Assembly: GCA_963784995.1 (NCBI GenBank)
Contig: CAWATZ010000006.1
Location: 72,853-136,852, forward strand
DNA from: an uncultured Planctomycetota bacterium
GTDB taxonomy: Bacteria; Planctomycetota; Planctomycetia; Gemmatales; Gemmataceae
Length of the DNA stretch: 64,000 nucleotides
Direction of reading: 5' to 3'
This document shows positions 1,783 to 48,483 of the stretch, piece after piece. The stretch's first letter is position 1. Each line of letters opens with the position of its first letter. Position numbers and translations under genes: made by a program. The notes below the pieces were generated by a model that saw only the letters and a list, made by a program, of their open reading frames with translations, was not told the DNA's origin and ran no database searches.

Positions 1783-1814
1783 AATTTGACCACGGATTCC
1801 TCCAGGAGCGACTG

Positions 1815-12474: not shown

Positions 12475-12691
12475 CGGAAGAACCCTTTAGCTGGTGTGGC
12501 TTGCCCCGGCACCAGACGGCGACCGCAAACAATCCACGTCTTTGTTGTATGGATTGGTGCTTCGATCTGCCACGGATTGACGCCCCCGGAACGGTTTGTT
12601 ACCCTCACGCCGTGGAGGTCTACCCAAACCGGGAACGCTTGCAGCAAGCCGCCTCCAACCGAACGTAGACAGCGGCAGCGGGAGAGAAGTC

Positions 12692-13708
12692 ATGGCGGAC
12701 TTCGACGACGCGGAACGGCACGCTCTGCACGAGGTGGAGCCAGAGAAGCAGTTGCACTGGCTGCTGGAGGAAGTGGACCCGGATCTGGCGTTCTTCGGCT
12801 GGCAGCCAACGCAATTGTCCCCACCGCCCGGCGTGCCGCAGCTGCGCTGCGACTGCGTGGCCGGTCTGCGGTCGCGCAGCGGCTCGCAGTCGCCGTGGGC
12901 CTGCCTGATAGAAGCACAAGGCCAGCCGCTGGCCGGCATGGCCGTCTGGATGCTGATCTACCTGGGGCTGCTGCACAACCTGCTGCGTTATGATGGCCGC
13001 GATCCTTTCCAGATGATGGGCGTGATCCTCAACCTCAGCGAGGGCGAATTGAGCCACGCCATCGACTGGCGTGTGCCCCTCAAGAAGCCCACCGAGACGC
13101 CCTCCGCCGACGCCGACGCTGAACAATCCGTTGCTGAACCGTCGCCTGCGCCAGCCCCGGGCGTTGCCTGCACGTTCTTCGTCAAGAACGTGCGTCAGGA
13201 GAGCGCCGAGCGGACCTTGAACCGAATCGAGCGAGACGAACTCGGCTTGTGCATTTTGGTATGGGTTCCTTTAATGGCGGGAGCCGATCAGCCGGAGATC
13301 GTCCGCCGCTGGCGCGACCTGGCGATGCGGCAGGAGCAGTTGCATCTGCGGGCCGATTACGCCGCCCTGGCTGTGGTGTTCGCCGAGATGGCCGGCCGCA
13401 AGCAGCTGTGGGAAACCGGGTTGGAGGGATTCAGCGTGCAAGAGTCCGAAGTCGTGCGGGGCTGGCGTCAGGAGGGCGTGAAAGAGGGTCTGGAGAAGGG
13501 CCTGGAGAAAGGCGCTCTGACGACGGCGCGAGCGGCAGTGGTTAACGTGCTGCAGGTTCGTTTCCCGAACGTGGCCGTGCCGGAAGGAGTCCGCTCCGCA
13601 CTGGAGAAGAACACAGACGTGCGGCAACTGAGTGACTGGTTGCGCCAGGCGGTCTTGACGCCCTCGCCCGCCGAATTTGAACGGTCCCTCACTGCTCCCG
13701 CTGTCTGA
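12692..13708 (+). CDS. Rpn/YhgA-like PD-(D/E)XK family protein with DUF4351-like C-terminus (paralog 1 of the MADFDDAERHALHEV family)
   Basis: Core ACLIEAQGQPLAGMAVWMLIYLGLL resembles the ILIEhQS...m.fRml.Y motif of Rpn proteins. C-terminal EGLEKGLEKGALTTARAAVVNVLQVRFPNVAVPEGVRSALEKNTDVRQLSDWL is the DUF4351 pattern. About 90% nucleotide identity to 20485-21477. Confidence 0.65.
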   Translation: MADFDDAERHALHEVEPEKQLHWLLEEVDPDLAFFGWQPTQLSPPPGVPQLRCDCVAGLRSRSGSQSPWACLIEAQGQPLAGMAVWMLIYLGLLHNLLRYDGRDPFQMMGVILNLSEGELSHAIDWRVPLKKPTETPSADADAEQSVAEPSPAPAPGVACTFFVKNVRQESAERTLNRIERDELGLCILVWVPLMAGADQPEIVRRWRDLAMRQEQLHLRADYAALAVVFAEMAGRKQLWETGLEGFSVQESEVVRGWRQEGVKEGLEKGLEKGALTTARAAVVNVLQVRFPNVAVPEGVRSALEKNTDVRQLSDWLRQAVLTPSPAEFERSLTAPAV

Positions 13709-15673: not shown

Positions 15674-18600
15674 TCAGGGGATAAGAGGCGGCGGCCCTTG
15701 CCAGGTGGCGGCCATCCCTTCGAGTTCACGGCGGACCCCCTCCGGGCGCAACCAGCCGTAGCCGCCGCACCCGAGCCTATCGAGCAAGCGGCGGAAATCA
15801 TCCTCGGTCCAGGTCGGCTTGCCTCGACGGACCAGGTCATCGGCATAGGGCGTGTGAAGGGTCAGGAACGTGGTGAGGAAGTGTCGCGCCCCTTCGTCCC
15901 AGTCTGCTGGTTGATTCTGTTCAAACTCCCAGTCCAGCTCCCACAGTCGCAGCGTGTTGTCGAAGCTCCCCGAGAGAGCAAAGCGCCCGTCGGGACTCCA
16001 TGACACCGAGTTCACCTCTTCGGTGTGCCCCTCGAAGCTGCGGATGCACTGGCCGGTGGACACCTCCCATAGCCGCAGCGTGTTGTCTTTACTCCCCAAT
16101 TCAGAGAATCCGCTTCCCGAGAGGGCGAAGCGGCCATCTGGGCTCCACGACACTGATTTTACCGGCTGGATGTGCCCCTGGAAGGAACGGAGGCACTGAC
16201 CGCTGAACACATCCCACAACCGTAGCGTTTTGTCAGCGCTTCCCGAAAGAGCAAAGCGGCCATCGGGGCTCCACGACACCGAGGTTACCTGCATCGTGTG
16301 CCCCTCGAAAGTGCGGAGGCATTCCCCGCGAAACACATCCCACAGCCGCAGCGTTTCGTCAGCGCTTCCCGAGAGAGCGAAGCGGCCATCGGGGCTCCAC
16401 GACACCGAGTTCACCTCTCTGGTGTGCCCCTCGAAGGTGTGTACGCACCTGCCGCTGGACACCTCCCACAACCGCAGCGTATTCTCCCCGCGTTTCTTCC
16501 CGGAAACAATGTCAAACATGTCATCAAGGTCTTTGGAGAGGTCCCCCGACCCCGCTGGTTTTCCGCTTCCCGAGAGGGCGAAGCAGCCGTCAGGGCTCCA
16601 GGACACGGAGTTCACCTCTCCGGTGTGCCCCTCGAAGCTACGGAGGCACTGGCCGGTGGACACCTCCCACAGCCGCAGCGTTGTGTCCAAGTTTCCCGAG
16701 AGAGCGAAGCGGCCATCGGGGCTCCACGACACGGATACCACGGCTTTGGTGTGTCCCTCAAAAGAGCGAAGACACTTGCCGCTGGACGGCTCCCACAGCC
16801 GCAGCGTACCCCCCCCATCGCCCGAGAGCGCGAAACGGCCATCCGGGCTCCACGACACACAGATCGCGCTGGCTTTTTGTCCCGCGAAGGTGCGCTTTTC
16901 CCAGCCGTTCACAAAGCTACGGTGGACCAGGGAGCGAGACAACCGCCTTGCCAGCTCCAGGGCTTCTTCCCTGCGCGAACAGCCGGGTTGTTGCCTGGCC
17001 TGTCGGAGCAAACCTGCCGCGATTGCTGGATTGCTGGCGAGCGCGTCTCGAGCTTGCTGGAGCCTTTGGGAATACAGCGTGGAGTCAGCTCCGGTTGCCC
17101 AGCTCAGGACGAAGGGAACAGGTTGCGCCGCGAACGCGATCCGCACTCGCATCAGCGCATCTCCGCTTACCGAGAGGGCAAAGCGGCCGTCGGAGTTCCA
17201 CGACACCGAGGTCACCGCTTTCTTGTGGTCTTCCAAGGTGCGGACGCATTTACCGCTGGACACCTCCCACAGCCGCAGCGTCGTGTCCCAACTCCCCGAG
17301 AGGGCGAAACGGCCATCCGGGCTCCACGACACCGAGGTCACCCCACTCACGTGCCCTTGAAAGGTACAGAGGCACTTGCCGCTGGACACTTCCCACAGCC
17401 GCAGCGTATCGTCCTCGCTGCCCGAGAGAGCAAGGCGGCCGTCAGGGCTCCACGCCACCGAGTAGACCTGCATCCTGTGCCCCGGGAAGGAGCGGAGATA
17501 CTGGCCGCTGGACACTTCCCAGAGCAGCAGCGTCCCGCCCCAGCCCCCCGAAAGAGCAAAGCGGCCGTCGGGGCTCCACGCCACCGAGGTCACTCTATCC
17601 GTGTGCCCTCTGGGGGTGCGTTCCTCCGTTACCGCCCGGAGTGCCGCCTCGAGCCGTAGCTCTCCAAAGCTGGTCTCCTTGCCCCGCAGCCTTGTGCGCA
17701 GGCCCTCCATCAGGTGTCGCACAAATGCGGCGGTGAGTCCATCGAAGATGCGGAAACACTGGCCGCTGGACACGTCCCACAACCGCAGCGTTTTGTCGTC
17801 GCTCCCCGAGAGAGCGCAGAGGCCGTTCGGGCTCCACGCCACCGCGTTCACCCCTTCGGTGTGTCCCTCGAAGACGCGGAGACACTGGCCGGTGGACACC
17901 TCCCACAGCCGCAGGGTTTTGTCCGCGCTCCCCGAGAGGGCGAAGCGGCCGTCAGGGCTCCACGCGACCGAGTACGCCGGCAACGTGTGCCCCTCGAAAG
18001 TGCGCAGACACTGGCCGCTGGACAGCTCCCAGAGCTGCAGCGAACAACCCAGTTCCTCCCGGGTAGCGCTGCTCTTCACGAGGACAAAGCGGCCATCAGG
18101 GCTCCACGGCCCTGAAGATAGCGGGGCCGTGAACTCCTCCGAGGTGCTGGGAAACTGTCTGGCTGGGTCGCGCAGGGATTGCGCCAGGGCCAGAGCGGAG
18201 GTGATTTCCGCCCGAACCGTGCCCGTCTCGCCGGCCTTGTTCAGCGAGTCAATGGCGGCCTGCGCATCGCCTCGCTCCACGTGAATCAGCCCTGTCAGGT
18301 AGTCGATGCGTGCGGCATCGGCGGACGAGGTGCGGACTTCCCGCAATGTCTGCAGCAGCATCTGGTCCGTCATCCGACCCGAACGCCACTGGATGAGGCC
18401 CCAGTTGTAGGTGGCTTCGGGATGGTGCGGGTCCACGCGCAGGGCCTCTTGCCAGTTTTTTTCGGCTGCTTCCAGGTTCTTCAGGTCCAGCAGCGACACA
18501 GCGCGGTTGTTGAGCATGTCCGCCAGCAGCTCCTCCGGTTTCGGCTGCTGGCGCGGATAGGTCTGTCCCATCGCCCGCTGGTAAATGTTCCGGAGCGAAT

Positions 18601-19656
18601 CCGCTACCTGCAACAGGTCATGCGGGCGGTCCTCCGGCCGTTTCTGGAGGCAGCTCTGCAGCAGGTCCTTCAGCCCTGACGGCATCGCCGGCAAGTGGGC
18701 TTCGTTCGGCTCACGCTGCAAGGCCACGTGGGCGACTTGCCCTTCCCGCCAGGGCGCTCCCCAAGGAACATCTCGAGTACGCTTACCGCCCACGACCAAA
18801 CATCGGTTCGCCGCGTGAGCTTGGGCAATTGCTCACGCGGCCTCCCCGCCATCATCCTCGCCGCAATCTCCGCTTGTTCCGGCGAGCAGTATGCTGGAGT
18901 CATCCCACCCCAGGTCGCCAGCAGCGTCGCCTCCACCGGCCGCTGCTCCTTCGCATCGAAGGCGACCGCCTTTGCGCCAGCTAACCCGAAGTCGGTTACC
19001 TTGGCGACGCCGTCCGCCGTCATCATCACGTTGAGCGGCTTGACGTCTTGGTGGATGAGTCCCAGTTCGTGGACGTAGTGCAGCCCCCACGCTGCCTGAA
19101 TGGCCACGTCCAGAATGCGTTCCAGGGCCGCATGCGGCCCGCCCTCGTACAGCCGCTTCGCGTCGATCCACTCCGAAAGCGTACCACCATCGACATACTC
19201 GATGAAGACACGCGGCACGCCCCCCAGTACGCGAACGTAGTGGCAGGAGACGACGTTCGGATGCAGCCCGATCGTATTGACCCATTGCTCGGCTTCCGTC
19301 GTGAATTTCTCGATGTCCCGGGCGCTGGCGGACCGCGCCGGCAGCACGGACTTCACCGCCAGCTCCCTGTTCCACTCGCGGTGCCGGACGAGGTTCACGC
19401 GACCCATGCCACCCTCGGCGTAGCCGAGCTTCCTTCCCGGCAGCTGGATGACCTCGTACAGGTCGAGGATGACGTCGCCCGGCTCCCAGTCGCGGGGAAT
19501 GCCGTCCTCGCCGCGTGGTCGTTCCGGTGAGGCGGGGTCTGGCCAGAACGGGTGCCCGCACGCCCCGTTCCGGCAGGTCACGGGCTTCCCGCGCTCCGCA
19601 TCGTCGATCGTACATTGCGTCGCACACAGCGGACACGAAACGCTGATGCTGGCCAT
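15674..19656 (-). CDS. Ser/Thr protein kinase-TPR-WD40 multidomain protein (frameshift near 18795)
   Basis: N-terminal zinc ribbon MASISVSCPLCATQC. Kinase (IHQDVKPLNVMM, VTDFGLAG). The frame then switches into the 15674 ORF carrying TPR-like helices and 14 or more near-identical WD40 blades (GHT..V.SVSWSPDGRFALSGS.D.TLRLWEVS.G). Confidence 0.8.
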
Positions 19657-20199: not shown

Positions 20200-20484
20200 G
20201 GGTTGGTTCCCTTCTCTCCGTGTCGCGATCACTTGCCGAGACCCGGCTTCACTTCGGGCCTCACTTCTCTATTCGGGAACTTTTGCGGAACGTGGGAAAA
20301 ATTCGTGCGGAAATCTTTCAGGCTTGAGCCGTTGCCATGCAACCGCGCTGCGGGGTGGGTCCGTCTGGATACTTGATGCGGGATCGATAACACAACGGTG
20401 GCCAGCACTGGCCGGGCGCCCCGAAGACTGTTGCTCTTCTCTGAAGGCGCCGCCGCGCTGGCGGGCGGCGGCGGGAGACAAGCC

Positions 20485-21477
20485 ATGGCGGACTTCGACG
20501 ATGCGGAACGGCACGCGCTGCACGAGGTGGAGCCGGAGAAGCAACTGCACTGGCTGCTGGAGGAAGTGGACCCGGATCTGGCGTTCTTCGGCTGGCAGCC
20601 AACGCAGCTGTCGCCGCCGCCCGGCGTCCCGCAGTTGCGCTGCGACTGCGTGGCCGGCCTGCGTTCGCGCAGCGGCTCACAACCGCCGTGGGCCTGCCTG
20701 ATCGAAGCGCAGGGCCAACCGCTGGCCGGCATGGCCGTCTGGATGCTGATCTACCTGGGGCTGCTGCACAACCTGCTGCGTTATGATGGCCGCGATCCTT
20801 TCCAGATGATGGGCGTGATCCTCAACCTCAGCGAGGGCGAATTGAGCCACGCCATCGACTGGCGTGTGCCTCTGAAGAAGACCACCGGGACGCCCTCTGC
20901 CGACGCCGACGCTGAGCTACCCACTGCTGAGCCGTCGCCTGCACCAGCCCCAGGCGTTGCCTGCACGTTCTTCGTCAAGAACGTGCGCCAGGAAAGCGCT
21001 GAGCGGACCTTGAATCGTATCGATCGGGGCGAACTCGGCTTGTGCATTTTGGTGTGGGTTCCTTTAATGGCGGGAGCCGCTCAGCCGGAGGTCGTCCGCC
21101 GCTGGCGCGACCTGGCGCTGCGACAGGAACAGTTGCATCTGCGAGCCGATTACGTCGCCCTGGCGCTGGTGTTCGCCGACATGGCTGACCGCAAGGAACT
21201 CTGGAAAGCCGGATTGGGGGGATTCAACGTGCGAGAATCTGAAGTCGTGCGTGAGTGGCGCAAGGAAGCGTTTGAGGAGGGAACGCTGACAACCGCGCGA
21301 GCAGCAGTGGTGAACGTGCTGGAAGCACGGTTCCCGACAGTGCCCGTGCCGGAAGGAGTGCGCTCGGCGCTGGAGAAGAACACGGACGTACGGCAGCTCA
21401 GCGACTGGCTGCGCCGGGCGGTCTTGACGGCCTCGCCCGCCGACTTCGAGCGTTTCCTCACCACGCCTGCCGCCTGA
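20485..21477 (+). CDS. Rpn/YhgA-like / DUF4351 family protein (paralog 2)
   Basis: Same N-terminus (MADFDDAERHALHEVEPEKQLHWLLEEVDPDLAFFGWQP) and same C-terminal DUF4351-like tail as 12692-13708. Confidence 0.65.
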   Translation: MADFDDAERHALHEVEPEKQLHWLLEEVDPDLAFFGWQPTQLSPPPGVPQLRCDCVAGLRSRSGSQPPWACLIEAQGQPLAGMAVWMLIYLGLLHNLLRYDGRDPFQMMGVILNLSEGELSHAIDWRVPLKKTTGTPSADADAELPTAEPSPAPAPGVACTFFVKNVRQESAERTLNRIDRGELGLCILVWVPLMAGAAQPEVVRRWRDLALRQEQLHLRADYVALALVFADMADRKELWKAGLGGFNVRESEVVREWRKEAFEEGTLTTARAAVVNVLEARFPTVPVPEGVRSALEKNTDVRQLSDWLRRAVLTASPADFERFLTTPAA

Positions 21478-25717: not shown

Positions 25718-25940
25718 GACCAGCCAGGCGGTCAGCGTCAGTGGGCTGGGTGGTTGGGTGGGACTGGCCCCGGCACTGGGGCTGGCGGTAACGGCACCGG
25801 GGGGGATGGCAGTGAAGGACTCGGACACGATCAGCTCCGCAAGGTGCGAATGAGGATCAGCAGGGGACGGAAGGAGAAACGCTTCTCCGGCAGGATTCAG
25901 TCTATGGAGGTTGGGCTGCGGTGTCCGGTCAGACCCAGGC

Positions 25941-26008
25941 GAGCCCGCACGCCTGCGTGCGCTCCGGCCGGCAGGCCGGCCGGAGCGCACGCAGGCGTGC
26001 GGGCTCGC
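25941..26008. repeat. 68-bp near-perfect palindrome; head-to-head variant of the 40-bp GC-rich element family (copy A)
   Basis: GCGAGCCCGCACGCCTGCGTGCGCTCCGGCCGGC|AG|GCCGGCCGGAGCGCACGCAGGCGTGCGGGCTCGC. Intergenic, immediately 3' of the chorismate-lyase-like gene. Confidence 0.9.
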
Positions 26009-26010
26009 CT

Positions 26011-30708: not shown

Positions 30709-31324
30709 GTGACAACAGAGCAGCCAACGCTGACTTCTCTCCTGAAGCAGGTCCAGGCAGGTTCCCAGGAGGCGGCGCAAACGCTGTACGACCTCTACGC
30801 CTCCCACGTGCGCCAGGTGATCCGCTTGCGTCTCTCGGATCGGCTGCGCCGGCGGTTTGATTCCCTGGATTTCTGCCAGGACGTCTGGGCATCGATCTTC
30901 ACCTCTCCCCCGGAGCCGGACGCCTTTGAGTCGCCGGAGAAATTCGTTGCGTTCCTGACCCGCATGGCCCAGAACAAGGTGACCGACGCTACCCGGCAGC
31001 AACTGGGGACGGAGAAATACGATCTCGGTCGCGAGGAACCGTTCAGCCGGAGCAACGAAGGCAAGGTCCCGGTGCGACTCTTTGCCCGCGAGGACACTCC
31101 CAGCGTCCTCGCCGCCAGCAAGGAGGCGTGGGACAAGCTCCTCGTCAGCTTGCCTCCGGTACACCGGCGCGTCCTGGTGCTGCTTCACCAGGGAAAGACT
31201 CAGGAGGAGACGGCCGCGAAGCGCAGGCCGGCCTGCCGGCCGGAGCGCACGCAGGCGTGCGGGGGTCACCCGGAGGACCGTCGAACGGATCTATGCCCGT
31301 GCCGTGCAGCAGCTCCGTTCCTGA
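30709..31324 (+). CDS. ECF-type sigma factor, 3' end disrupted by 40-bp palindromic element copy B
   Basis: Region 2 (ASHVRQVIRLRLSDRLRRRFDSLDFCQDVWASIF) and the start of region 4 (VLVLLHQGKTQEETAAK) are followed by the element ([15 protein letters not shown]). The expected helix-turn-helix continuation GVTRRTVERIYARAVQQLRS* lies in a different frame. Confidence 0.7.
31222..31261. repeat. 40-bp GC-rich palindromic element, copy B (CGCAGGCCGGCCTGCCGGCCGGAGCGCACGCAGGCGTGCG)
   Basis: Exact consensus copy. Contains the CGCACGC-AGG-CGTGCG hairpin and a GGCCGGCC..CCGGCCGG palindrome. Confidence 0.9.
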
Positions 31325-31354: not shown

Positions 31355-33527
31355 GTGAAGTATTGGGATATCGCAGCGAACCTGGATTACAGACGAGTCA
31401 TGGCGGAAATGAGCCCAGAAGCACGAGCAGACGGTTGCATCCGAGAGGAGAGCTGGTCGGTCCTCCTGGAGGCAGCTTACTTTGAATACTGCTGCCTCGA
31501 GCAAGAGGGCCAGGCCGTCGATCTCCAGGCCTTCTGTGCGCGCTATCCAGGGATGCACGGCGCTCTGTGGATTCTCTTGCAGAGTCACCAGTTTCTGGAG
31601 AACAACCCGCACCTGCTGATTCGCGAGCCCAACTGGCCGCAGCCCGGCGCGACCTTTCGGGGTTTCCGCCTGGAACGGCTGCTCGGGCAAGGGTCGTTTG
31701 CCCGGGTCTTCCTGGCCCGCCAGCTGGCCCTCGGCGGCCGGCTGGTGGCTTTGAAGCTCTCGACTCGAACGGGCGCCGAAGCGCACGTGCTCGGGCGGCT
31801 GGTGCATCCCAACGTCATCCCCGTCTTTTCGGTGGAGCGCGACGAGGCCACCGAACTCACGGCCCTGTGCATGCCGTATTTCGGAGACGCGACCCTGCTG
31901 GACGTGCTGGTTCAGCTCCAGGCCGCTACCGCGCTGCCACGGAACGCGGCCGTCCTGCTGGACGTGCCCAGGCGGTTGGCCGCCGCGCTGCCGCTGGAAA
32001 ACGTGTTGCCACCGCCGCGCGTCCTGGTCCAGGGCAGCTACGAGGAAGGGGTGCGTCATCTCGGCAGCCAGCTCGTGGACGCGCTGGCCTACCTCCACGA
32101 GCAGGGCATTGTCCACCGCGACCTGAAACCGTCCAACATCCTGCTCACGCCTGCCGGGACGCCCCTGCTGCTGGACTTCAACCTCTGCGCCGCGGTCGAG
32201 CAAAACGATGCCGAACATGGGGGATCGGTCAGGTACATGGCTCCCGAGATCCTGGGGGCCATGATCCAGCAGGATGCCCCGGCGCCGCTCGATGGGCGTG
32301 CCGACCTCTTCTCCCTGGGAGTCATCCTTTACGAGCTGCTGACCGGTTGCCACCCGTTTGACCCACTGCCGAGGGAGCTGGACACGAAGGAATCCTGGCA
32401 GCAGTTGCTGAAGTGCCAGCAGGCGGGCAGCCGGCCTGTCCGGGCTTTGAACCCCCGCGTCGATCCCCAGCTGGGCGCCCTGGTGGATCAGTGTTTGTCC
32501 TGGGATGCCGCTCGGCGTCCGCCCCTCGCACGCCTGCGTGCGCTCCGGCCGGCAGGCCGGCCTGCGCTTCGCCGCCGTCGCGGCCTTGCGTCCACGCATC
32601 AGTTTCGTAACCCGCGTGCGGGCCCTGGCAACCCACCGTCCACGGACCGTTGCTGCTCTCCTGGTGTCGGGGCTCCTTGCTGTCCCGGCACTGGCGCTGG
32701 CGTTGTCCGGCGGGTTGCTCGGGACGGAGTTGGAACGCGGCCGGGAAGCGTACCGTCAGGGGCGGTACGAGCAGGCCGTGGTCCATTTCGATCGAGCGCT
32801 GGCAACCGACCCCAACGACGCCCAGGGATGGTTTGCGCGCGGACTGGCCTACCAGAAACTGGGGCAGTCGGATCGCAGGAACTACGCCCACGCCGCGGCG
32901 GACTTCGAGGGGGCCTGGCGCCTCGACCCGCAAGGAAAAAGCAAAGCCTGTCTGGGTTACTGTTTGCAGGCGCGAGGACAATCTCTGGAGGCCGCTCTGG
33001 TGTATGAGGAGGCCATCCAGAGCGGTTACGCTCCGGCCGAGTTGCTCAACAACCTCGGTGCCGCGGAATGGGCCCTGGCCCGTCTGGCTCTGGCCGAACA
33101 GCACCTCAGCGCTGCCATCAAGCTCGAACCACGCCTTCAGGCAGCCTACCATCACCGCGCTCTTGTCTATCTGCAACTCGCACGCCAGCAGACGGCGCCC
33201 GATGCCGCGTTACGCCGGGACAAGTTCCTCCGCGCGGGCATCGCAGACGCGAACAAGGCCCTTGCACTTGGGCCGCCCTCAGGGGAATTGTTTTACGACG
33301 CCGCTCAACTGTGTGGAGTGGCCGCACGTACTCACCCGGTGTGGGCGAACCCAGCACTGGACTACCTCGACCAGGCCTTGCGTTACGGCGTCAAGCCGAA
33401 GCAACTTGCCGACAAGGCCTGGGTCGCCCTGCACAAGGAACCCCGTTTCCAGGCACTCGAAAAACGCTCTCCCGTTCCTCACCCGGCATTCAAGGCCGTG
33501 CGCATCCTGCCTCCCGTGAAAGAGTAA
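31355..33527 (+). CDS. Ser/Thr protein kinase-TM-TPR protein, interrupted by 40-bp element copy C
   Basis: Kinase domain ([18 protein letters not shown]...RYMAPE) up to ...SWDAARRPP. Then the element. Then, in another frame, a TM segment ([20 protein letters not shown]) and TPR repeats ([38 protein letters not shown]...). Confidence 0.75.
32527..32566. repeat. 40-bp GC-rich palindromic element, copy C (reverse orientation)
   Basis: CGCACGCCTGCGTGCGCTCCGGCCGGCAGGCCGGCCTGCG is the exact reverse complement of copy B. Preceded on the element strand by CGAAG, as are copies B and D. Confidence 0.9.
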
Positions 33528-33821: not shown

Positions 33822-34570
33822 ATGTGGAAGACTCTGCTTACGTGGTGGCAAAGGCCAGCAAGACGTGCCAGCGCCCAGCCGGTCCGGCTCTTTCTGGAGC
33901 ATCTGGAATCGCGCTGGTGTCCCTCGTCTGGAGGGGGAGGGGGAGGGGCGCCGACGTTGACTTACAACGTCACCCAGACCGGCGGCCAGACCGTCCTGAT
34001 CTCCGGCACGGTCACGGACCAGAACCCCAGCTCGGTGGACATTTCCTTCACGGGCGTGGTCAACACCAGCATCACCGCATCCGCCAACGGGACCTTTTCC
34101 GTCTCGACGACGGCCTCCGCCCTGGGAGAAATTGACGGCGTGGACAAAGGTGGCCCAGCAGTTGAGTTCGCCGCCACCCCGGGTTGCGCTGCGCTCCACC
34201 CGGGGCTCTATTCCCCAGGACAGGAGTAAAGCCCCGGGTGGAGCGCAGCGCAACCCGGGGGAGTTCGCCGGTCGTCCCCTTCAACCTGACGAACAACCCG
34301 CCGCAGATCGTGAATTTCCAGGCCGTCCAGGTGACGGGCAACATCTGGACGCTGAGCGGACAGGTCCAGGATGCCTGCGCCAGCGGGTTGGTGGTGACCT
34401 TCGGCGGGTTTCCCGAGCTGGACGGGCAGACGGTCCTGACGGATGACAACGGCAACTTTTCTTTTGCGGTCACGCTGGCCGATGGCGAGTACGGAACCGC
34501 GACCGCCCAGACCTGCGATGGCTGGGACATGGAGTCCAACGTCGCCGAGTGGTACATCAACCCGGCCTAG
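33822..34570 (+). CDS. secreted protein with two tandem Ig-like/beta-sandwich repeats, interrupted between the repeats by a hairpin MITE
   Basis: N-terminus RRASAQPVRLFLEHLESRWCPS (planctomycete secretion-type leader). Repeat 1 is ...ISGTVTDQNPSSVDISFTGVV...NGTFSV. Repeat 2 is ...LSGQVQDACASGLVVTFGG...NGNFSFAV. The two repeats lie in different frames on either side of 34176-34261. Confidence 0.6.
34176..34261. mobile_element. 86-bp hairpin MITE-like element (arms CCGGGTTGCGCTGCGCTCCACCCGGGG / CCCCGGGTGGAGCGCAGCGCAACCCGG) flanked by a 10-bp direct repeat GAGTTCGCCG
   Basis: Perfect ~27-bp inverted arms around a 28-nt loop. GAGTTCGCCG is present at 34164-34173 and 34261-34270. A second copy without an obvious duplication lies at 35716-35806. 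Confidence 0.75.
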
Positions 34571-34968: not shown

Positions 34969-35117
34969 GCCGCGCTGCCGGCACAAGCACCCGCCCTCGC
35001 AGAGAGCCTTTGCATGGCGACCATCTTGATCGTCGATGACCAGCTGAGCATCCGCTACTATCTGGTGCGGCTGCTGGAGCACGCCGGCCATCGGTTGCTC
35101 CAGGCCGCCGACCGAAG

Positions 35118-35157
35118 CGCAGGCCGGCCTGCCGGCCGGAGCGCACGCAGGCGTGCG
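35118..35157. repeat. 40-bp GC-rich palindromic element, copy D
   Basis: Exact consensus. Sits between receiver-domain codons ...AADRS and EALATVK.... Removing 38 nt restores the receiver reading frame. Confidence 0.9.
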
Positions 35158-35715
35158 AGGCCCTGGCAACCGTCAAGGCGGAACGGCCCGACCTGGTGAT
35201 CACCGACATTCAGATGCCGAACGTGGACGGCTGCGAGTTTGTCCGCCAGCTCCGTGCGGATCCTGCCCTGGCAGCGACACCGGTCATCTTCTGCACGGCC
35301 CGCTCCAGGGAGGAGGCCCAGGTCCTGGCCGATGCCTGGGACGTCGCCGACGTCCTGACCAAACCCTGGGAGCCGGAAGCGGTTCAGCGCGCGGTGGCGT
35401 CCGCCCTGAGCATCGCCCCGCTTCCGGCACCTCCCACCCCGGAGCCTGAGATGCCGGACCAACCCAGAACGGCCAGGCAGACCGAGGCGGCGCTGCGCCA
35501 GTGAAGAACTCTTCCGCAGTGCCTTTGAGTACACCAACGTTGCCATGGTCCTCATGGACGTCAACAATCGCTTTGTTCGTGTCAACGCTGCATTTACCCA
35601 GCTGCTGGGCTATTCGGAAGCGGAGCTGCAACTGGCGATGAGCGACGTCACCCACCCGGACGATCTGGCAGAAAGCGACTCCCGTCGTGCGGCCCTGCCG
35701 GCCGGCACCAGGCGT

Positions 35716-35806
35716 CCCCGGGTTGCGCTGCGCTCCACCCGGGGCTTTACTCCTCAAACCAGGAGTAAAGCCCCGGGTGGAGCGAGGTACGAGCGCAACC
35801 CGGGGG
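35716..35806. mobile_element. 91-bp hairpin MITE-like element (same family as 34176-34261)
   Basis: CCCCGGGTTGCGCTGCGCTCCACCCGGGGCTTTACTCCT...AGGAGTAAAGCCCCGGGTGGAGCG.GGTACGAGCGCAACCCGGGGG. It is translated in frame as ...PRVALRSTRGFTPQTRSKAPGGARYERNPG... inside the first PAS region. Confidence 0.75.
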
Positions 35807-36169
35807 TCTTCCAGATGGAGACACGCTATCGGCACAAGGACGGACACGTCCTGTGGGGCTTGACGAACGTCTCCCTGGTGCGCGACACCAGCGGTCAGCC
35901 GATGCTGTACGTCGGCCAGGTGCAGGACGTCACCGAACGCAAACGCTCGGAAGAGGCACTGGCCAGGTCCGTCGAGCGCCTGCGCATCCTGCATCAGATT
36001 GACCTGGCTTTGATCAAGGGGGAAAGGCCGGAAGAAATTGCCGGAGCAGCCGTGGCACCCCTGCGCGAACTGCTCGGGGTGTCCCGTGCCGTCGTGAACC
36101 TGTTTGACCTGGCCAGCGGCGAGGTCGAGTGGCTGGCCAAAGCGGAGGCCAGCCCTCTGCCCGACCTGT

Positions 36170-36207
36170 CGGGCAGGCCCGACGGAGCGCACGCAGGCGT
36201 GCGGGGG
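36170..36207. repeat. partial or variant copy of the 40-bp element (copy E)
   Basis: GGGCAGGCCCGACGGAGCGCACGCAGGCGTGCGGGGG keeps the 3' hairpin half exactly. Read in frame within the GAF region ([15 protein letters not shown]). Confidence 0.7.
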
Positions 36208-36776
36208 CAGCACCGGGTCCACGTCGGTCCAGGCATCCGCTATTCGATCCGGTTCATGGGGGACGTGGAGGCCTTGCGGCGGGGTGAACTGCAAGTGATC
36301 GACGTCCACGCACTGCCTCCCGGGCCGGAAGTCGATGCCTTGCTGGCCTCCGGGGTCCACTCCTGCGTGGTCGTGCCCATGATCGCCGAAGGCGAACTGA
36401 TCGGCGCGCTCAGCTTCGGAGGCACCGAGGTCGCGTTGTCCCCGGAGCAGGTCACGGTCGCGCAGGAGGCCGCTTCGCAGTTCGCGATCTCCATCTCCCA
36501 GGCGCGACTCCATGAACGGGTCAAACGCCAGGCGCAGGAACTCGAAGCGCAGGTCACCGAGCGCAAACTCGCCGAGGAGGCATTGTGCCTGGCTCAGCAG
36601 CGCCTGCAACACGTGGTGAGTTCCAGCCCGGCCGTGCTCTGCACCCTGGCGGTCGAGGACAGCGACCTCCGGCTCACCTGGATCAGCGACAACGTGCGCG
36701 AGCTTCTTGGCTACTTGCCGGCGGAGGTGTTCTCGCCCCGCTGGTGGCAGGAGCGCGTCCACCCGGAGGACCGGCA

Positions 36777-36836
36777 GCACGCCTGCGTGCGCTCCGTCGG
36801 GCCTGCCCGACAGGTCGGGCAGAGGGCCGGCCTGCG
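36777..36836. repeat. 60-bp variant of the 40-bp element with an extra internal hairpin (copy F, reverse orientation)
   Basis: GCACGCCTGCGTGCGCTCCGTCGGGCCTGCCCGACAGGTCGGGCAGAGGGCCGGCCTGCGC. The histidine-kinase frame is lost exactly here. Confidence 0.8.
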
Positions 36837-37615
36837 CTTGGGGCCGAGATCCAGCAGGGGCTGTTGTCCCACGGTCGCCTGGCCAGTGAGTACCGCTTCC
36901 AGCACAAGGACGGGACCTATCGCTGGGTCCGGGGCGAGTTGCGGTTGCAGAGCGACCCGGCAGGCGGGGCCACGGAAATTGTGGGCTCCTGGTCGGACGT
37001 GACCCAGCGCAAACAGCTGGAGGAGCAGTTCCGCCAGGCGCAGAAAATGGAGGCGATCGGCCGGCTGGCGGGCGGGGTGGCGCATGATTTCAACAATCTG
37101 CTGACCATCATCAACGGCTACGGCACCCTGGTGCTGACCCGGTTGCCGGCCGACGACCCCACGCGCGAAATGATCCGGGAGGTCGTCGCCGCCGGGGACC
37201 GGGCTGCCGGTCTGACGCGCCAGCTGCTGGCCTTTAGCCGCAAGGCCTTCATCGAACCCAGGGTGCTGGACCTCAAAGTCCTGGTCGGCGACCTCCAGAA
37301 AATGCTTCGCCGCATCATCGGCGAGGACATCCAGCTGACCGTGGCGTCCGATCCCGACCTGGGCGCGGTGAATGCCGACCTCGGCCAGATCGAGCAGGTG
37401 ATCATGAACCTGGTGGTCAACGCCCGGGACGCCATGCAAGGGGGCGTTTGGGGAGACCCTCCACAACACCACCCGCCGGGGGGCCAGCTGACCATCGAAC
37501 TGCGCAACCGCGACCTGGACGAGACATCCGCTCGGGAGCAGCCGGAAGCCCGGGCCGGACCGTACGTGGTGCTGACGGTCCGCGACACGGGCTGCGGCAT
37601 GGACGCGGCCCCGAG

Positions 37616-37656
37616 CGCAGGCCGGCCTGCCGGCCGGAGCGCACGCAGGCGTGCTG
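37616..37656. repeat. 40-bp GC-rich palindromic element, copy G (3' end GTGCT variant)
   Basis: Inside the HATPase_c G1/G2 region, between GCGMDAAP and [11 protein letters not shown]. Confidence 0.85.
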
Positions 37657-37869
37657 GGCCCGGATCTTCGAGCCCTTTTTCACCACCAAGGGGGAAAAGG
37701 GCACCGGACTGGGGCTGGCCACGGTCTATGGCATCGTCAAGCAGAGCGGCGGCCACGTCACCGTCTCCAGCGCGGTGGGGGCCGGGACGACCTTCCAGGT
37801 GTACCTGCCGCGCGTGCAGCAACGGCCCTCGGAAAGGATGAAGGATGAAGGATGAATCAGAACCCCAAG

Positions 37870-37909
37870 CGCAGGCCGGCCTGCCGGCCGGAGCGCACGC
37901 AGGCGTGCG
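37870..37909. repeat. 40-bp GC-rich palindromic element, copy H
   Basis: Exact consensus, 17 bp downstream of the histidine-kinase stop. Possible terminator-like position. Confidence 0.9.
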
Positions 37910-42795: not shown

Positions 42796-45700
42796 ATGAG
42801 CGACGCATCATCGCTGCTGAACGACCTGTCGGAGGAGGCGATCTGGCGTCTTGAAGAGGTCTGCTGCCGCTTCGAGCAGTCCTGGCAGACCGGCTCCCGG
42901 CCATGCCTGGAGGATTTCCTCTCCAGCACAACGGGGGCCGAGCGGCTCGCCCTCTTGCGCGAATTGCTGGTCCTGGACACCTACTACCGCCGCCGGGCCG
43001 GCGAGGAACCCTCGGTGCAGGACTACGCCACGCGCTTCCCCGACGCCGCCGACCTGCTCAGCGAGCTGGTCCCCGCCCTCCCCGAGGGCGGCGAGGCGTC
43101 TTCGGCACAGGGGGCCGAGAGTACCACCGATGACGTCGTCCGCACTGGCCCCTTCCTCGGGGCCAGGGACGCAGGCGGGCAGGAAGCTGGTCCTGCCCTC
43201 GATGCTCCGGCGGCGGGCCGCTTCCGGATGCTGCGCTTCCACGCGGCCGGCGGCCTGGGCGAGGTGTTCGTGGCCGAGGACCAGGAACTGCACCGCGAGG
43301 TCGCTCTCAAGGAGATCCAGCGCAAGTTTGCAGGCCACGACGAGTGCCGGGAACGCTTTGTGCTGGAAGCGGAGATCACCGGCAACCTCGAGCATCCGGG
43401 GATCGTGCCGGTCTACGGGCTTGGCACTTACCCCGACGGCCGGCCCTACTACGCCATGCGGTTCATCCGCGGCGAAACCCTGGGCACCGGCCATCAAGCA
43501 ATTCCACACGCAGACGCCGGTGCGTTTCGACTCCCTGACCTTCCGCCAGTTGCTGGGCCGGTTGGTGTCGGTGTGTCAGGCCGTGGCCTATGCGCACAGC
43601 CGTGGCGTGCTGCACCGGGACATCAAGCCGGGCAACGTCATGCTGGGCAAGTACGGCGAGACCCTGGTCGTGGACTGGGGCCTGGCCAAGGTCATCGGCC
43701 GGCCGGACGCCGGAGAGGCGGCTCCTGGGGAGGAGGGGTTGCTGCGCCCTTCCTCAGGAGGCGGGGCCCAGGCCACGCAGGGCGCGGTGGGCACGCCGGC
43801 GTTCATGAGCCCCGAACAGGCGGCGGGCAAGGTGGCGGAGCTGGGTCCGGCGACCGACACGTATAGCCTGGGAGCGACCCTCTATGAGCTGCTCACTAAC
43901 CGAGCGCCCTTCAAGGGCCCGGTGGTCGAGGTCATCAAGCAGGTCGAGAAGGGTGCCTGGCAGCCGGCGTGCCAGGTCAATGCCGCCGTGCCGCCAGCGC
44001 TGGACGCGATCTGCCGCAAGGCGATGGCGCTGCGTCCGGAGGAGCGCTATGGTTCGGCGCTGGCGTTGGCCGAGGACCTGGAGCACTGGTTGGCCGACGA
44101 ACCGGTGGGGGCTTACCAGGAGCCGGCCTGGGCGCGGCTGCGGCGATGGATGCGGAAACACCCCCGGCGGGTGAATGCAGCCGCAGCGTCGCTGGTCGCG
44201 GCAGTGGTCGTCCTGGCGGTAAGCGCGGTGGTCCTGGAAAGCAGCAGACAGGCGACACAGCGAAGCCTGGACACGGTACAGGAGCAGGCGGACTACTTCG
44301 TGTCGGAGGTGAGTGACAACCTGTTGCTGAACGAGCCAGGGCTGCAGCCACTGCGTCGGCGCATTCTGATGAAAACGGTGGAGGGCTACGCGAAGTTCCT
44401 CAAGGACCGCCCTGGAGATCCTCACGCTCGGCAGCAGCTGGCTGGGGCGAAGCGGCAACTGGGGGAATTGTGTGCGCAGATGAGCCAGCTTCGGGAGGCC
44501 AGGGCGTATGAGATCCAGGCCGTGGAGGATTATGAGGCGTTGTTGCAGCAGACGCCGACGGACCGAGGATCGCTGTTCGGGCTGGCGCGTGCCCGATACG
44601 TGATCGCCGACCTGCACGCGCAAGAGGGTAAATCCGAAGAAGGGACGAAGGAGGTTGAGCGGTCGATCGCGCTCCTGAAGACGCTGACAACCGAGGAACC
44701 GGGGAACGTCGCTTACCTGCTCCTGCTGGCCCGGTGCTATGAATTCCGGACAACAACTGAAGCCCAGCAGGGTAATGTGGAGTCGGGCCTCGCCGACAAC
44801 GAGCGGGTCCTGGAGACGCTGGGAAAGGCAGGTGTCCGCAATCCTGCCCACACACATTGGAGCGCCCCGGGGTGGGAGGGACCCCGCGTAGTCGATCACG
44901 GGCAAACCACGCCCCAAGCAATGGCCTGGCCGCGCGACCTCATGCTGGGACGCGCTTACACCACCCAGGGGACCTTGCTCAGCATGGCCGGTCGGAACAG
45001 CGAAGCGGTCCGGTTCCTCGAGGAGGCAATCGCCATCCATCGCCCGCTCCTGAAACAGAACCCTCGGGCAGGTCAGGTAAGCCACGGATTGGCTCTGGCC
45101 TTGCTCCACTCGGGCCGCGTCCTGGTCCAGCTCGACATGCCAGGGAGGGGTGAGGTCGCCCTTCGCGAAGCACTCGGGTTGATGCAACGGCTGGTCCAGG
45201 ATGATCCCCAAGTGAAGGAATACCGGGCCACCCGGCTGCTGGCCGCTGGCTACCTGGGCGATTCGCTTTTCCGCCAGGGCCGGACAGCCGCCGCCGCGGA
45301 ACTGCTCCGGGAGGTCGTCCAGGAGGGAGACAAGGAACTGGACCGTTCGTGCAAGGACCACAACGTGCGTGGGCAACACGCCCGCTTGCTCTCCGTCCTG
45401 GGGCGCCTGGAGGTCGAGGCCGGAAACTTTGACCGGGGCCTCGACATTTGCCGGATGGCCCAGGAGAAACTGGAGCAAGCCCTCCGCGAGACGTCGGGCG
45501 ACCGTTCGTTGCGCAGCGACTGGCTGGCCAACCGCGAAACGCTGGCCCGCTGTCGCTTCCTGAAGGAGGAGTTCAGCCGGGACGACTGGATTGCTGAGCA
45601 GCGGGCGATCCTCAAGGAACGGCAGGCCCTCGTGAGTCAAGGCCCGCCCGCCCCCCAGTTCCAGGGGGAAGTGGCAGGGTCAGCCGTCATCCTGGCGGGG

Positions 45701-46379: not shown

Positions 46380-47512
46380 ATGCCCATGCCCACTCCGCAA
46401 GCCTCTGTTCAAAACTCGCGCCGACGCTCGGCCTATACCCTGATCGAGTTGCTGGTGGTGATCGCCATTATCGCCGTCTTGATCGGCCTGCTCCTGGCTG
46501 CCGCCCAGTCCGCGCGGGCGGCAGCGAGTCGCGCCCAGTGCCAGAACAACCTGAAGCAAATCGCCCTGGCTGTGGCCAACTACGAAAGCGCGATCGGGGT
46601 GTTGCCGCCAGGGATCAATGTTAGCCCCAATTCGACCGACCCGAACGACGCTTATAACTGGCCGAAGCCCTGGGCAGGTCCGTACGTGGGTTGCCTGGCC
46701 TACCTGCTGCCCTACCTCGGGCAGGGCGTCGTTTATAAGGAACTCTGGGACTTCAATACACCTGCCCTTGCGCCTGGGGCCCTGTTCCAGCCTGACACGA
46801 CTTGTCCTGCCTGGGCTTACGGCTTCGGGCCCTGGGACTTCCAGGAGCCCACCATTATTGCGCAGGGGCTGCAGAACGGGACGGGCAATCGCTACCCCAC
46901 GGCCGCCAACAAAAAGTTTCCGACGTTCCTCTGTCCGGCTGACCCCGGCACTCCCGGTGCCGTTGTCACAGACATGCTGATGATCAACTCCGACGCCAGG
47001 CTGAATTGGGGCGTCTGGAACGATACCGTGCTGAACATCCCTGATTATGGGAAGGACCTGGGCGCACCAACTACCTCGCCGTTGGTGGAGCGTTCGGGAA
47101 GGTTCAACCAGGAGACCCCAGAACGGACCACGCACAAGGGGCGCGCTTCGCCGGAATCTATTACGCCAACTCGACGACCAGGACCACGGACATAACCGAC
47201 GGCCCGTCGAACACGCTGGCCTTTGGCGAGTCTCTGGGCGGGCTCCTCAACAATGGCACTCGGATGGATGAATTCTCCTGGTTGGGGGCAGGGTGGATGC
47301 CAACGTGGTATGGCCTCCAACCCATCTACGGCTCACAGAACAACGATTACAAGTGGATTCAGTTCCAGAGCATGCACCCCGGCCGTGTTGTGAACTTTGC
47401 CTTCGGCGACGGCTCGGTTCGCGGGATCAGCCAGTCGGTAGACTTCGACACCTTCATCGCTGCCTCTGGGATGCAGGATGGGGTGCCAGTCAACCAGGCC
47501 CTCCTGCAATAA
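46380..47512 (+). CDS. DUF1559 (H-X9-DG) prepilin-like N-terminal domain protein (one or more frameshifts, 47090-47260)
   Basis: [66 protein letters not shown]-terminal [19 protein letters not shown] (the H-X9-DG motif) is in the 47264 frame. Confidence 0.8.
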
Positions 47513-47902: not shown

Positions 47903-48483
47903 TCAGACAGCAGAAGGAGTGAGGGACCGCTCAAAGTCGGTGGGAGAGGGCGTCAAGACTGCCTGGCGCAACCAGTCGCTCAGTTGCCGCACGTCCGTGT
48001 TCTTCTCCAGCGCCGAGCGCACCCCATCCGGCACGGGCGCCTCCGGGAAACGCGCTTGCAGCACGTTCACCACTGCTGCCCGCGCGTTCGTCAGCGTTCC
48101 CTCCTGAAAAGCCTCCTTGTGCCACTCACGCACGACTTCGGATTCTCGCACGTTGAATCCCTCCAACCCCGTTTGCCAGAGCTGCTTGCGGCCGGCCAGA
48201 TCGGCGAACACCAACGCCAGGGCGACGTAATCGGCAAGCAGATGCAACTGTTTCTGACGCAGCGCCAGCTCGCGCCAGCGCTGCACGACGTCCGGCTGGT
48301 CGGCCCCCGCCATTACAGGCAGCCACACCAAAATGCACAAGCCGAGTTCGCCCCGCTCGATGTTGGCTGCCAGCCGAAGAACTCCAGGTCCTCGTCCACT
48401 TCATCCAGGAGCCAGCGGAACTGCTCCACCGGTTCGACCTCATGGAGGGCATGCCGTTCCGCGTCATCATCAAAGTCCGCCAT
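47903..48483 (-). pseudogene. Rpn/YhgA-like / DUF4351 family paralog 3, truncated and frameshifted
   Basis: N-terminus MADFDDDAERHALHEVEPVEQFRWLLDEVDEDLEFFGWQP (48313-48483). C-terminal part ...CILVWLPVMAGADQPDVVQRWRELALRQKQLHL...DVRQLSDWLRQAVLTPSP (47903-48340). The middle section is missing. Confidence 0.7.

Follow-up and report, generated by a model that had tools for sequence, protein, structure and literature searches.

Selfish DNA within protein-coding genes is a known phenomenon, and the crowded locus of a Gemmata-like bacterium described here is a dense case of it. In-frame RPEs have been described from Rickettsia (Ogata et al., 2000, 2002, as summarized in PMC10969869). According to the RPE part of that summary, these are palindromic selfish sequences of about 100–150 bp which reside inside unrelated protein-coding genes of an AT-rich, reduced genome, often in frame and with the encoded peptide at a tolerated position, and several families occur within one genome. 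Intragenic REPs, with several per ORF, are known in the PVC bacterium Opitutus terrae (PMC3733652). REPs tagged with GTAG or CGTC are palindromic repeats of 20–40 nt which are found as singletons and as inverted dimers (Di Nocera et al., 2013, PMC3733652). Some of them are located wholly inside ORFs, where they code for 20–30 aa, and some ORFs carry two; extragenic copies are found near the 3′ ends of convergent genes, the classical REP position.

The window (the whole 64-kb stretch of DNA that was analyzed) contains the following features.

25937–26010, no strand assigned: copy A, intergenic; perfect inverted dimer (36 + 36 nt) of the right-hand module, REPIN-like
31219–31260, forward strand: copy B, in an ECF sigma-factor gene, at the helix-turn-helix
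32528–32569, reverse strand: copy C, in a Ser/Thr kinase-TPR gene, at the end of the kinase domain
34164–34270 (including repeats), forward strand: hairpin copy 1 (34174–34260 without the repeats), made up of CCA and a hairpin of 84 nt
35014–37855, forward strand: histidine kinase gene, receiver-PAS-GAF-PAS-HisKA-HATPase_c (Pfam matches on the repaired protein)
35115–35156, forward strand: copy D, short form, 37 nt preceded by AAGCG; receiver domain of the histidine kinase, conserved D-G-x-E-A-L stretch
35500–35502, forward strand: element-free frame change, cgccag^tgaagaa; fits AGAG reduced to AG
35716–35808, forward strand: kinase hairpin copy, 93 nt, in a PAS loop; right arm with an extra AGGTAC
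36140–36204, forward strand: copy E, long form, AAGCG + 58 nt + GG; GAF loop of the histidine kinase
36777–36839, reverse strand: copy F, long form; second PAS domain of the histidine kinase, between two of its helices
37437–37472, forward strand: 36-nt insert, in frame, 12 residues; HATPase_c domain, after the N-box helix
37613–37654, forward strand: copy G, short form, 37 nt preceded by GAGCG; in the ATP-lid region, flanked by the G1 and F boxes
37867–37908, forward strand: copy H, short form; extragenic, between convergent genes

As in the RPE system, as far as it is portrayed in PMC10969869, palindromic DNA lies inside unrelated protein-coding genes, often in frame and with its peptide at a tolerated position, and more than one family is present. 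The kinase hairpin copy (+30 aa), copy E (+20 aa), the 36-nt insert, and a copy in an NfnA-like gene from metagenomes (+12 aa, see below) are all in frame, in unrelated ORFs, and fold-compatible, being placed in coil in a structural model or in a variable alignment loop. Copies B, C, D, F, and G shift the frame. The systems differ in that the elements measure 37/58 nt and 84–93 nt, are very GC-rich, and belong to a large genome of a free-living planctomycete, unlike the RPEs as characterized in that source, and in that the canonical short insertion (37 nt) is out of frame. Sequence homology to RPE families is unlikely, judged by composition and length alone.

Repeat families in the window

The short repeat family is REP-like and comprises eight loci (A–H), as had been predicted. 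Its 19-mer GGAGCGCACGCAGGCGTGC occurs nine times in the 64-kb window (0.18 expected), and the full 40-mer six times (0 expected). The canonical insert of the short form has 37 nt; that of the long form, which contains a nested 20-nt hairpin, has 58 nt. The original prediction took the copies to be 40-bp elements, five of them inside the histidine kinase gene. Copies E and F, however, represent a 63-nt variant with an additional 20-nt hairpin; they are arranged in inverted orientation, flank 532 nt, and are the only long-form copies in the window. Within the kinase gene there are only copies D, E, F, and G, while copy H starts 12 nt past the kinase stop codon (37853–37855) in a 105-nt spacer before a convergent gene. 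Six of the eight loci in the window are intragenic.

Insertion is directly 3′ of AAGCG or GAGCG, with ends that vary by −1 to +2 nt. A/G-AGCG precedes all copies which have a left end, a feature missing only from the inverted dimer A, and the right end is GCGTGC(G)(G) in all copies. Flanking direct repeats or target duplications were found at none of the 37/58-nt family copies having a left end. In the ECF sigma-factor gene (starting at 30709), deletion of 31224–31260 (37 nt) restores an ORF of 192 aa, with a Sigma70_r4 match that is continuous across the repaired joint. In the Ser/Thr kinase-TPR gene (31355–33527), deletion of 32528–32564 (37 nt) restores an ORF of 711 aa, and the joint is just past the end of the Pkinase match. 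Since exact deletion of 37 nt after AAGCG restores both genes, the canonical insertion causes a frameshift and is not accompanied by a target duplication. Net additions are variable despite an identical core, being 36, 37, 37, 38, and 38 nt for the short form and 59 and 60 nt for the long form. Clean cut-and-paste leaves this variation unexplained, which speaks against the explanation that we favor below.

The claim that the short element is palindromic was not clearly borne out for the single 40-mer: it has two small stems, each of 6 bp, and its folding is not superior to that of shuffled sequences (z −0.9). Strong folding (z −12 to −14) is found for copy A and the hairpin elements. The two arms of copy A, 36 nt each, are 100% complementary and separated by a 2-nt gap, resulting in a perfect 35-bp hairpin (z −14).

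The short family resembles the GTAG/CGTC-tagged REPs (PMC3733652) in size, in the occurrence of singletons and an inverted dimer, and in having copies wholly inside ORFs; copy H is placed like their extragenic members, near the 3′ ends of convergent genes. It differs because neither tag is present at the ends of any window copy, AAGCG being conserved instead, and because the singlet is not one clean stem-loop. Most window copies are intragenic, unlike these REPs and unlike the predominantly extragenic REPs and REPINs in general, and the six inserts in one ORF surpass the cases described in PMC3733652. Similarities also exist to REPIN/RAYT (Bertels & Rainey, 2011, PMC3116915) and to minimal elements derived from IS200/IS605: copy A is an inverted dimer which forms a long hairpin, a fixed short motif adjoins the element, a target duplication is lacking, and small hairpins are located near both ends. 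Our best guess is that the family is mobilized by a RAYT or by an IS200/IS605-type single-strand transposase. Pfam scans of 10 window ORFs, however, revealed neither a RAYT nor a TnpA gene, as would be present in REPIN/RAYT systems, and no transposase of any kind. HUH transposition would also not be expected to produce net lengths as ragged as these (−1 to +2 nt). With regard to PATE-like elements of the IS200/IS605 type, AAGCG/GAGCG precedes every copy with a left end and a duplication is lacking, but the net lengths vary from 36 to 38 nt and the element is far smaller than known PATEs.

The second family consists of 84–93-nt hairpin MITEs, one copy having a 10-bp target duplication. The predicted larger hairpin within the kinase gene was confirmed (35716–35808), and a second copy (copy 1, 34174–34260) was found 1.5 kb away; a distant relative is located at 1650–1784. 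Copy 1 is flanked by the 10-bp direct repeat GAGTTCGCCG (34164–34173 and 34261–34270) and disrupts a gene for a secreted protein (33822–34570). It has the attributes of a MITE (terminal inverted repeats with target-site duplication, non-coding, <500 bp), and with its long terminal inverted repeats, 10-bp duplication, and inactivation of a gene it is similar to the classical MITEs (Correia, ERIC, Nezha, and others) as these are treated in PMC10969869. Unlike those, the family is almost all stem (in copy 1, 38-nt arms with 95% complementarity and an 8-nt loop), and no target duplication was recognized at the kinase copy (35716–35808). CGTC happens to precede the kinase copy; copy 1 is without it. 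The 36-nt insert is present in a single copy in the window and is missing from all homologues aligned.

A further repeat (I7, 104–190 and 46422–46508) was considered as a mobile element and rejected, as it is a conserved prepilin-like N-terminal coding segment.

Reading frames of the histidine kinase gene and sequence quality

According to the original prediction, the elements split the kinase gene into four frames. Three-frame translation and a GC3 frame plot revealed five segments (35014–35112, 35157–35501, 35503–36776, 36840–37612, and 37658–37855), and the break at 35500–35502, which may be an assembly error, is element-free. As predicted, the hairpin copy and copy E are in frame (+30 and +20 aa) and the other copies are not, D (net +38 nt), F (net +59 nt), and G (net +38 nt) changing the frame. 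Each element is an insertion that is lacking in homologues, as revealed by alignment with seven of these (up to 68% identity). The proposed comparison with relatives thus confirmed the insertions at the protein level, but with the best homologue being just 68% identical it does not provide an empty site at the nucleotide level. The translation of the ORF at 35545–37002 matches the public protein P0032 (NCBI/ENA contig of 1.44 Mb) exactly. As P0032 includes the hairpin and copy E in translated form, the elements belong to the deposited record.

The kinase retains the H, N, G1, F, and G2 boxes and the receiver aspartates in intact form, together with an undisturbed GC3 codon bias, so that any decay would be recent. 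In an AlphaFold model, the hairpin, copies E, F, and G, and the 36-nt insert all occupy coil segments that connect secondary-structure elements, or the margins of such segments; the share of coil among native residues of the model is 0.26–0.29. Every insertion site in the kinase that could be scored is a loop, which would be unexpected if the gene had been dead before the elements arrived; this observation, too, does not sit easily with our favored explanation.

About six element-free frameshifts exist in the window, including the kinase break at 35500–35502. Of the five outside the kinase, one is directly upstream of hairpin copy 1; the other four are distributed over three long genes that are intact apart from them. 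For three of these four, correction of a single base gave complete ORFs of 1230, 832, and 1394 aa, across which the Pfam domains were continuous. Such frameshifts in otherwise intact long genes indicate that the assembly is noisy, and the window sequence likely contains assembly errors in addition to the elements. The breaks at D, F, and G may therefore be artefacts, and the kinase may be intact. Pseudogene calls from this record are thus unreliable without read-level checks. In addition, the elements split ORFs, so that gene callers yield fragments: P0032 and P0122 are fragments of the histidine kinase, and P0123 is a truncated sigma-factor ORF.

Occurrence in other sequences

The 40-mer is also present in two metagenome contigs. 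An intact NfnA-like gene (L035, L046-49) carries the short element in frame (+12 aa) in a protein that is otherwise 83–87% conserved and scores 316 bits against PDB 5jca_S. The allele with the element was found in four JGI samples (Illumina metagenomes); a homologue with an empty site has GAAGCC at the corresponding position. In a contig from another organism (L040), the element is part of an uninterrupted reading frame that codes for a different histidine kinase. Within the window and in L040, the short-form cores do not differ from each other, while the NfnA copy differs by one base. The hairpin family is represented by an in-frame carrier, P0125, on a 2.9-Mb contig.

Contamination by adapter or vector sequence was rejected as a source of the 40-mer, which occurs in Illumina metagenome contigs and in different genes.

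A scan of 185,579 species genomes for the exact 19-mer returned 33 single matches, none with the remainder of the element, which are therefore regarded as chance matches. Either the short element is missing from every representative genome or it is too diverged to be detected by an exact 19-mer. Neither family matched the viral contigs. Rfam returned nothing at gathering score, only generic hairpin matches to miRNA models. A protein search with six-frame translations of the elements (short, compositionally biased peptides) retrieved only the window's own sigma ORF (E = 1.8).

Explanations for the crowding

The kinase gene had been proposed to be a single-gene insertion hotspot. The crowding is real but extends over a 7-kb block of four adjacent genes (31.2–37.9 kb), which code for the ECF sigma factor, the Ser/Thr kinase-TPR protein, the secreted protein, and the histidine kinase; copies B and C and hairpin copy 1 disrupt the three genes directly upstream of the kinase gene. 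Together, the four genes have nine or ten insertions. The predicted excess over random dispersal was corroborated, with a binomial P of 9e-6 for five of eight loci in 2.9 kb and of 1e-8, for both families, for nine of ten loci in 6.7 kb. The remaining non-coding DNA of the window has only copy A and the distant hairpin relative at 1650–1784.

On balance, we favor the explanation that REP/MITE-like elements accumulate in tolerant loops of proteins and in a block of regulatory genes that is redundant and decaying, a process to which short-range re-insertion probably contributes. Two unrelated GC-rich families of tiny, presumably mobile repeats and an orphan 36-nt insert have gathered in the 7-kb four-gene block, and their density would reflect the survival of copies at this place. 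The block may be under weakened selection, with many sigma/kinase paralogues probably present in the genome (several further sigma/kinase modules are found in the window). The sigma-factor and Ser/Thr kinase genes are cleanly knocked out by 37-nt insertions, and D, F, and G probably also break the histidine kinase. Copies with a net length that is a multiple of three would be tolerated in surface loops of modular sensor domains, similar to the NfnA case. Re-insertion over a short range probably raises the density further. The co-clustering of three unrelated insert types speaks for a regional property (tolerance or relaxed selection) no less than for a property of one element. As the rest of the non-coding DNA in the window is nearly element-free, tolerance alone may not explain the density.

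Local hopping, which had been suggested in the original prediction, is a possible but less probable main cause. The elements would be re-inserted within a few kb of their donor, by cis-acting transposition or by fork-templated copying with microhomology, and the cluster would reflect the elements and not selection. This fits the restriction of the long variant to the E/F pair, 532 nt apart, the distance of only 1.5 kb between the close hairpin copies, and the location of seven of the eight short-family loci within 6.7 kb. The ragged junctions and the overlap of AAGC(G) with the target resemble microhomology-guided joining, but ends which are conserved within 2 nt across genomes point to defined, enzyme-cut ends and not to free template switching. 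The behavior of one element is also insufficient to account for three unrelated insert types in the same block. Moreover, the near-identity of the short-form cores (window, L040, and, with one base difference, NfnA) makes the genealogy of the copies unreadable.

We consider it somewhat less probable still that an intact kinase functions with six in-frame peptides inserted into its surface loops, like the Rickettsia RPE proteins. The breaks at D, F, G, and 35500 would then be due to indel errors in a noisy assembly of long reads, a problem that insertion polymorphism within the sampled population might have aggravated. The element-free frameshifts, three of them repairable by one base to complete ORFs, are in line with such errors, as are the preserved catalytic motifs and codon bias, the loop position of every scorable insert, and the in-frame elements in Illumina assemblies. 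Copies F and G have 4-nt homopolymers (CCCC/GGGG) at their junctions, and one added base there would result in net additions of +60 for F (as in E) and of +39 for G. The junctions of D, however, are without a homopolymer, and about one error per 10 kb cannot by chance strike five of six intragenic junctions. The match of the 40-mer cores to the Illumina copies indicates that the elements themselves were correctly read, and the perfect restoration of B and C at 37 nt indicates that the canonical insertion is truly out of frame and that the junctions are accurate.

It appears unlikely that the short repeats represent an undescribed class of ultra-short (37/58-nt) mobile elements in Gemmataceae. 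Such elements would insert raggedly 3′ of AAGCG and re-insert preferentially within a few kb, and would hence pile up in regulatory genes and, where the net length is a multiple of three, create new loop peptides in working proteins. Their chemistry would be distinct from that of RAYT/REP or classical MITEs, e.g., microhomology-guided templated insertion.

A target motif enriched in GC-rich signaling domains, by which the kinase would have been struck more often, had also been suggested and is very improbable. A/G-AGCG, in most cases with C/G-rich bases before it, stands in front of each copy that has a left end, and the empty-site NfnA homologue has the similar GAAGCC. The frequency of AAGCG, however, is 3.1 per kb in the window (200 sites), 3.9 per kb in the kinase, where the count includes sites supplied by the elements, and 2.4 per kb in the wider block; other kinase genes and PAS-free GC-rich genes of the window are element-free. 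Translational bypass was rejected as unsupported, and skipping of the inserts in the RNA or during translation (by ribosomal bypass or by frameshifting, cf. T4 gene 60 and the mitochondrial 'byp' elements), which would render the broken frames harmless, is hardly credible: the analogy lies in short, GC-rich, structured inserts in the coding sequence of an otherwise intact-looking gene, but a common take-off/landing codon pair, a stop at the upstream edge (the first stops are >40 nt downstream), and slippery heptamers are absent, the folding of the single 40-mer does not exceed that of shuffled sequence, and the frame offsets are unequal (+1 at B and C, +2 at D, F, and G).

If the accumulation of REP/MITE-like elements is the correct explanation, Planctomycetes would join Rickettsia and Opitutus as lineages with selfish palindromic DNA inside protein-coding genes. 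The setting would be a large, GC-rich genome of a free-living organism, with elements down to 37 nt. The NfnA case indicates that such inserts can become fixed in a conserved, NfnA-like redox enzyme.

Short repeats and the block of affected genes

The window has a GC content of 65% and its proteins have their closest relatives in Gemmata and other Gemmataceae. The 19-mer GGAGCGCACGCAGGCGTGC occurs nine times in the window (0.18 expected) and the full 40-mer six times (0 expected). These matches correspond to eight loci (A-H) of a short repeat family, listed together with the two copies of a 91-bp hairpin element:

25937-26010: A, perfect inverted dimer (36+36 nt), intergenic spacer
31219-31260: B, within an ECF sigma-factor gene
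32528-32569, minus strand: C, within a Ser/Thr kinase-TPR gene
34174-34260: hairpin copy 1, within the gene just upstream of the histidine kinase gene
35014-37855, plus strand: histidine kinase gene, containing D, E (36140-36204), F (36777-36839) and G
35716-35808: hairpin copy within the histidine kinase gene
37867-37908: H, 12 nt past the kinase stop codon (37853-37855), spacer ahead of a convergent gene

All copies having a left end (all except the inverted dimer A) are preceded by A/G-AGCG. The 40-mer core is identical across the short-form copies, the sole exception being one substitution in a copy from a metagenomic NfnA-like gene. E and F represent a longer variant which carries an additional perfect 20-nt hairpin. 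As an inverted pair, they enclose 532 nt of the kinase gene. This segment runs from where the GAF domain ends to where the second PAS domain begins, and recombination between E and F would invert it.

The original prediction regarded the kinase gene as an insertion hotspot with five short copies. The density is indeed non-random, with nine of the ten loci from both families falling in 31.2-37.9 kb (binomial P ~1e-8), but the hot region is a block of four genes: B, C and hairpin copy 1 break the three genes directly upstream of the kinase gene. Only four of the short copies (D, E, F, G) are intragenic, H being located past the stop codon.

Removal of exactly 37 nt after AAGCG restores a 192-aa sigma factor at B, with a Sigma70_r4 match spanning the joint, and a 711-aa kinase-TPR protein at C. 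The junctions of B and C are thus accurate, and the short insertion in its canonical form measures 37 nt, lacks a target duplication and is inherently out of frame. Other copies deviate from the canonical length of their form by -1 to +2 nt.

Net additions by individual copies (canonical length: short 37 nt, long 58 nt)
NfnA copy (short): 36 nt
B and C (short): 37 nt each
D and G (short): 38 nt each
F (long): 59 nt
E (long): 60 nt

The in-frame copies are those in functional-looking genes. The ragged lengths possibly arose because insertion ends vary and selection filters them, because compensating indels followed later, or because the assembly contains errors.

Among the other repeats, the direct-repeat list is dominated by long WD40 arrays (126-nt coding units) joined to Ser/Thr kinases (9160-10050, 15900-18150), which have no relation to the short-element insertions. 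Three paralogous segments of ~1 kb (12596-13708, 20398-21477 and, on the minus strand, 47903-48468) are 76-92% identical, and their proteins have no Pfam match.

Insertions and frame breaks in the histidine kinase gene

Once the inserts are taken out, a receiver-PAS-GAF-PAS-HisKA-HATPase_c protein is encoded. Every element in this gene is extra sequence absent from all seven aligned homologues, as is a 36-nt in-frame stretch (37437-37472) which is single-copy in the window. The alignment confirms that the hairpin (+30 aa) and E (+20 aa) are carried in frame; D, F and G shift the frame. Frame breakage is evident from the alignment and from the GC3 frame plot, where the same switches are visible, but there are five segments rather than the four proposed, and the elements are not the source of all breaks: the frame change at 35500-35502 occurs without any element. 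The ORF 35545-37002 is identical to a public protein (P0032, from a 1.44 Mb NCBI/ENA contig) which carries the hairpin and E in translated form, so that these elements are part of the deposited record. At the gene end, AGGATGA occurs three times (37835-37855), placing TGA in all three frames within 21 nt; translation thus stops there whatever the frame.

In the AlphaFold model of the frame-joined kinase (mean pLDDT 66.8, shallow alignment, receiver domain poorly modelled), the hairpin, E, F, the 36-nt insert and G each fall within coil linking secondary-structure elements, or at its margin. Coil accounts for 26-29% of native residues in the model, and all five inserts would land there by chance with a probability of ~0.002. 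D is presumably located in the beta2-alpha2 loop of the receiver domain. Kinase motifs, receiver motifs and codon bias are all intact. Together with the modelled coil positions, this suggests either that selection was acting on the kinase when the inserts arrived or that the target motif has a bias towards sequence coding for loops.

Element-free frame switches were also encountered elsewhere:

18.75 kb (18740-18760): Ser/Thr kinase-WD40 gene, CCCC read as CCC
~34.12 kb (about 34100-34160): secreted-protein gene, upstream of hairpin copy 1
43.49 kb (43482-43492): Ser/Thr kinase gene, extra G
54.26 kb (54249-54260) and 55.78 kb (55770-55790): amidohydrolase gene

Those at 18.75, 43.49, 54.26 and 55.78 kb are in three long, otherwise intact genes; single-base repair of three of the four yields ORFs of 1230, 832 and 1394 aa, with one continuous Pfam domain across each repair. 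Such switches are best explained as probable indel errors of long-read assembly and amount, with those at 35.50 and ~34.12 kb, to about one per 10 kb. The kinase could nevertheless be intact, with one base missing from the record at each of D, F and G; the joints of F and G contain 4-nt homopolymers. However, at a rate of ~1 per 10 kb, errors could not coincide by chance with five of the six element junctions inside genes, and the 37-nt deletion repairs B and C perfectly. We thus consider the element-linked frame shifts to be probably real. Translational bypass found no support.

Related elements within and beyond the window

Hairpin copy 1 has the 10-bp direct repeat GAGTTCGCCG on both sides, a classical MITE signature; no target duplication was found around the kinase copy. 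A 134-nt near-perfect hairpin (1650-1784; 67-nt arms, 91% complementary), located outside the hot block and close to the start of ORF 1722-5735, shares the core TGCGCTGCGC in its arms with the 91-bp hairpin and is a distant relative. A profile of the hairpin-arm peptide retrieved 17 proteins among 1.84 billion representatives, including P0032 from the window itself and an in-frame carrier on a 2.9-Mb contig. The arm motif PRVALRSTRG is also repeated in tandem, with 4-5 units per array, in proteins predicted from other assemblies (P0124, P0126, P0135), and related stems may therefore exist elsewhere as tandem repeats.

None of 185,579 species genomes contains the exact 19-mer as an element (33 matches, all by chance), nor do viral contigs; no Rfam family is matched by the elements. 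Two true loci of the short element were detected in JGI metagenomes. On contig L035, it is in frame within an NfnA/PyrK-like ferredoxin-NADP reductase subunit (316 bits to PDB 5jca_S; 83-87% identity to ten Gemmataceae homologues), in an allele identical in four separate samples. It represents a 12-aa loop insertion compared to nine of the homologues, the tenth (P0144) having a longer loop there. An empty-site homologue reads GAAGCC at the position where the filled gene has GAAGCG and then the element. On contig L040, a further histidine kinase contains the short element within its open frame, where it directly adjoins a different, perfect hairpin of ~70 nt (893-963; GGCACGGATGAACACGGATCAAAAC...). 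This gives a second case, from another metagenome, of repeats stacked within a sensor kinase.

A proposed permissive region with probable local re-insertion

A sequence context enriched in GC-rich signalling domains had been suggested as a cause of the clustering, but this fails because AAGCG-like sites are as frequent elsewhere. Local hopping fits the spacing: among elements of one kind, E and F lie nearest to each other, and so do the two hairpin copies. The co-clustering of three unrelated insert types points to a permissive region, where tolerance and relaxed selection would allow inserts to accumulate. The window holds several paralogous sigma/kinase modules, so that loss of one set should cost little. 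Tolerance and relaxed selection, together with short-range re-insertion of REP/MITE-like elements, give the best account; a RAYT or IS200/IS605-like enzyme might be responsible for the re-insertion.

In Rickettsia, RPEs preserve the reading frame of the genes they enter and fit the fold of the protein (PMC10969869). REPs tagged with GTAG or CGTC also occur inside genes, and such intragenic copies reach their highest number in Opitutus terrae, a PVC bacterium in which certain ORFs contain two (PMC3733652). The elements described here lack GTAG and CGTC tags, are shorter, and occur at unusual density. Selfish palindromes inside genes are already known and, pending read-level verification, the present elements add to this known kind.
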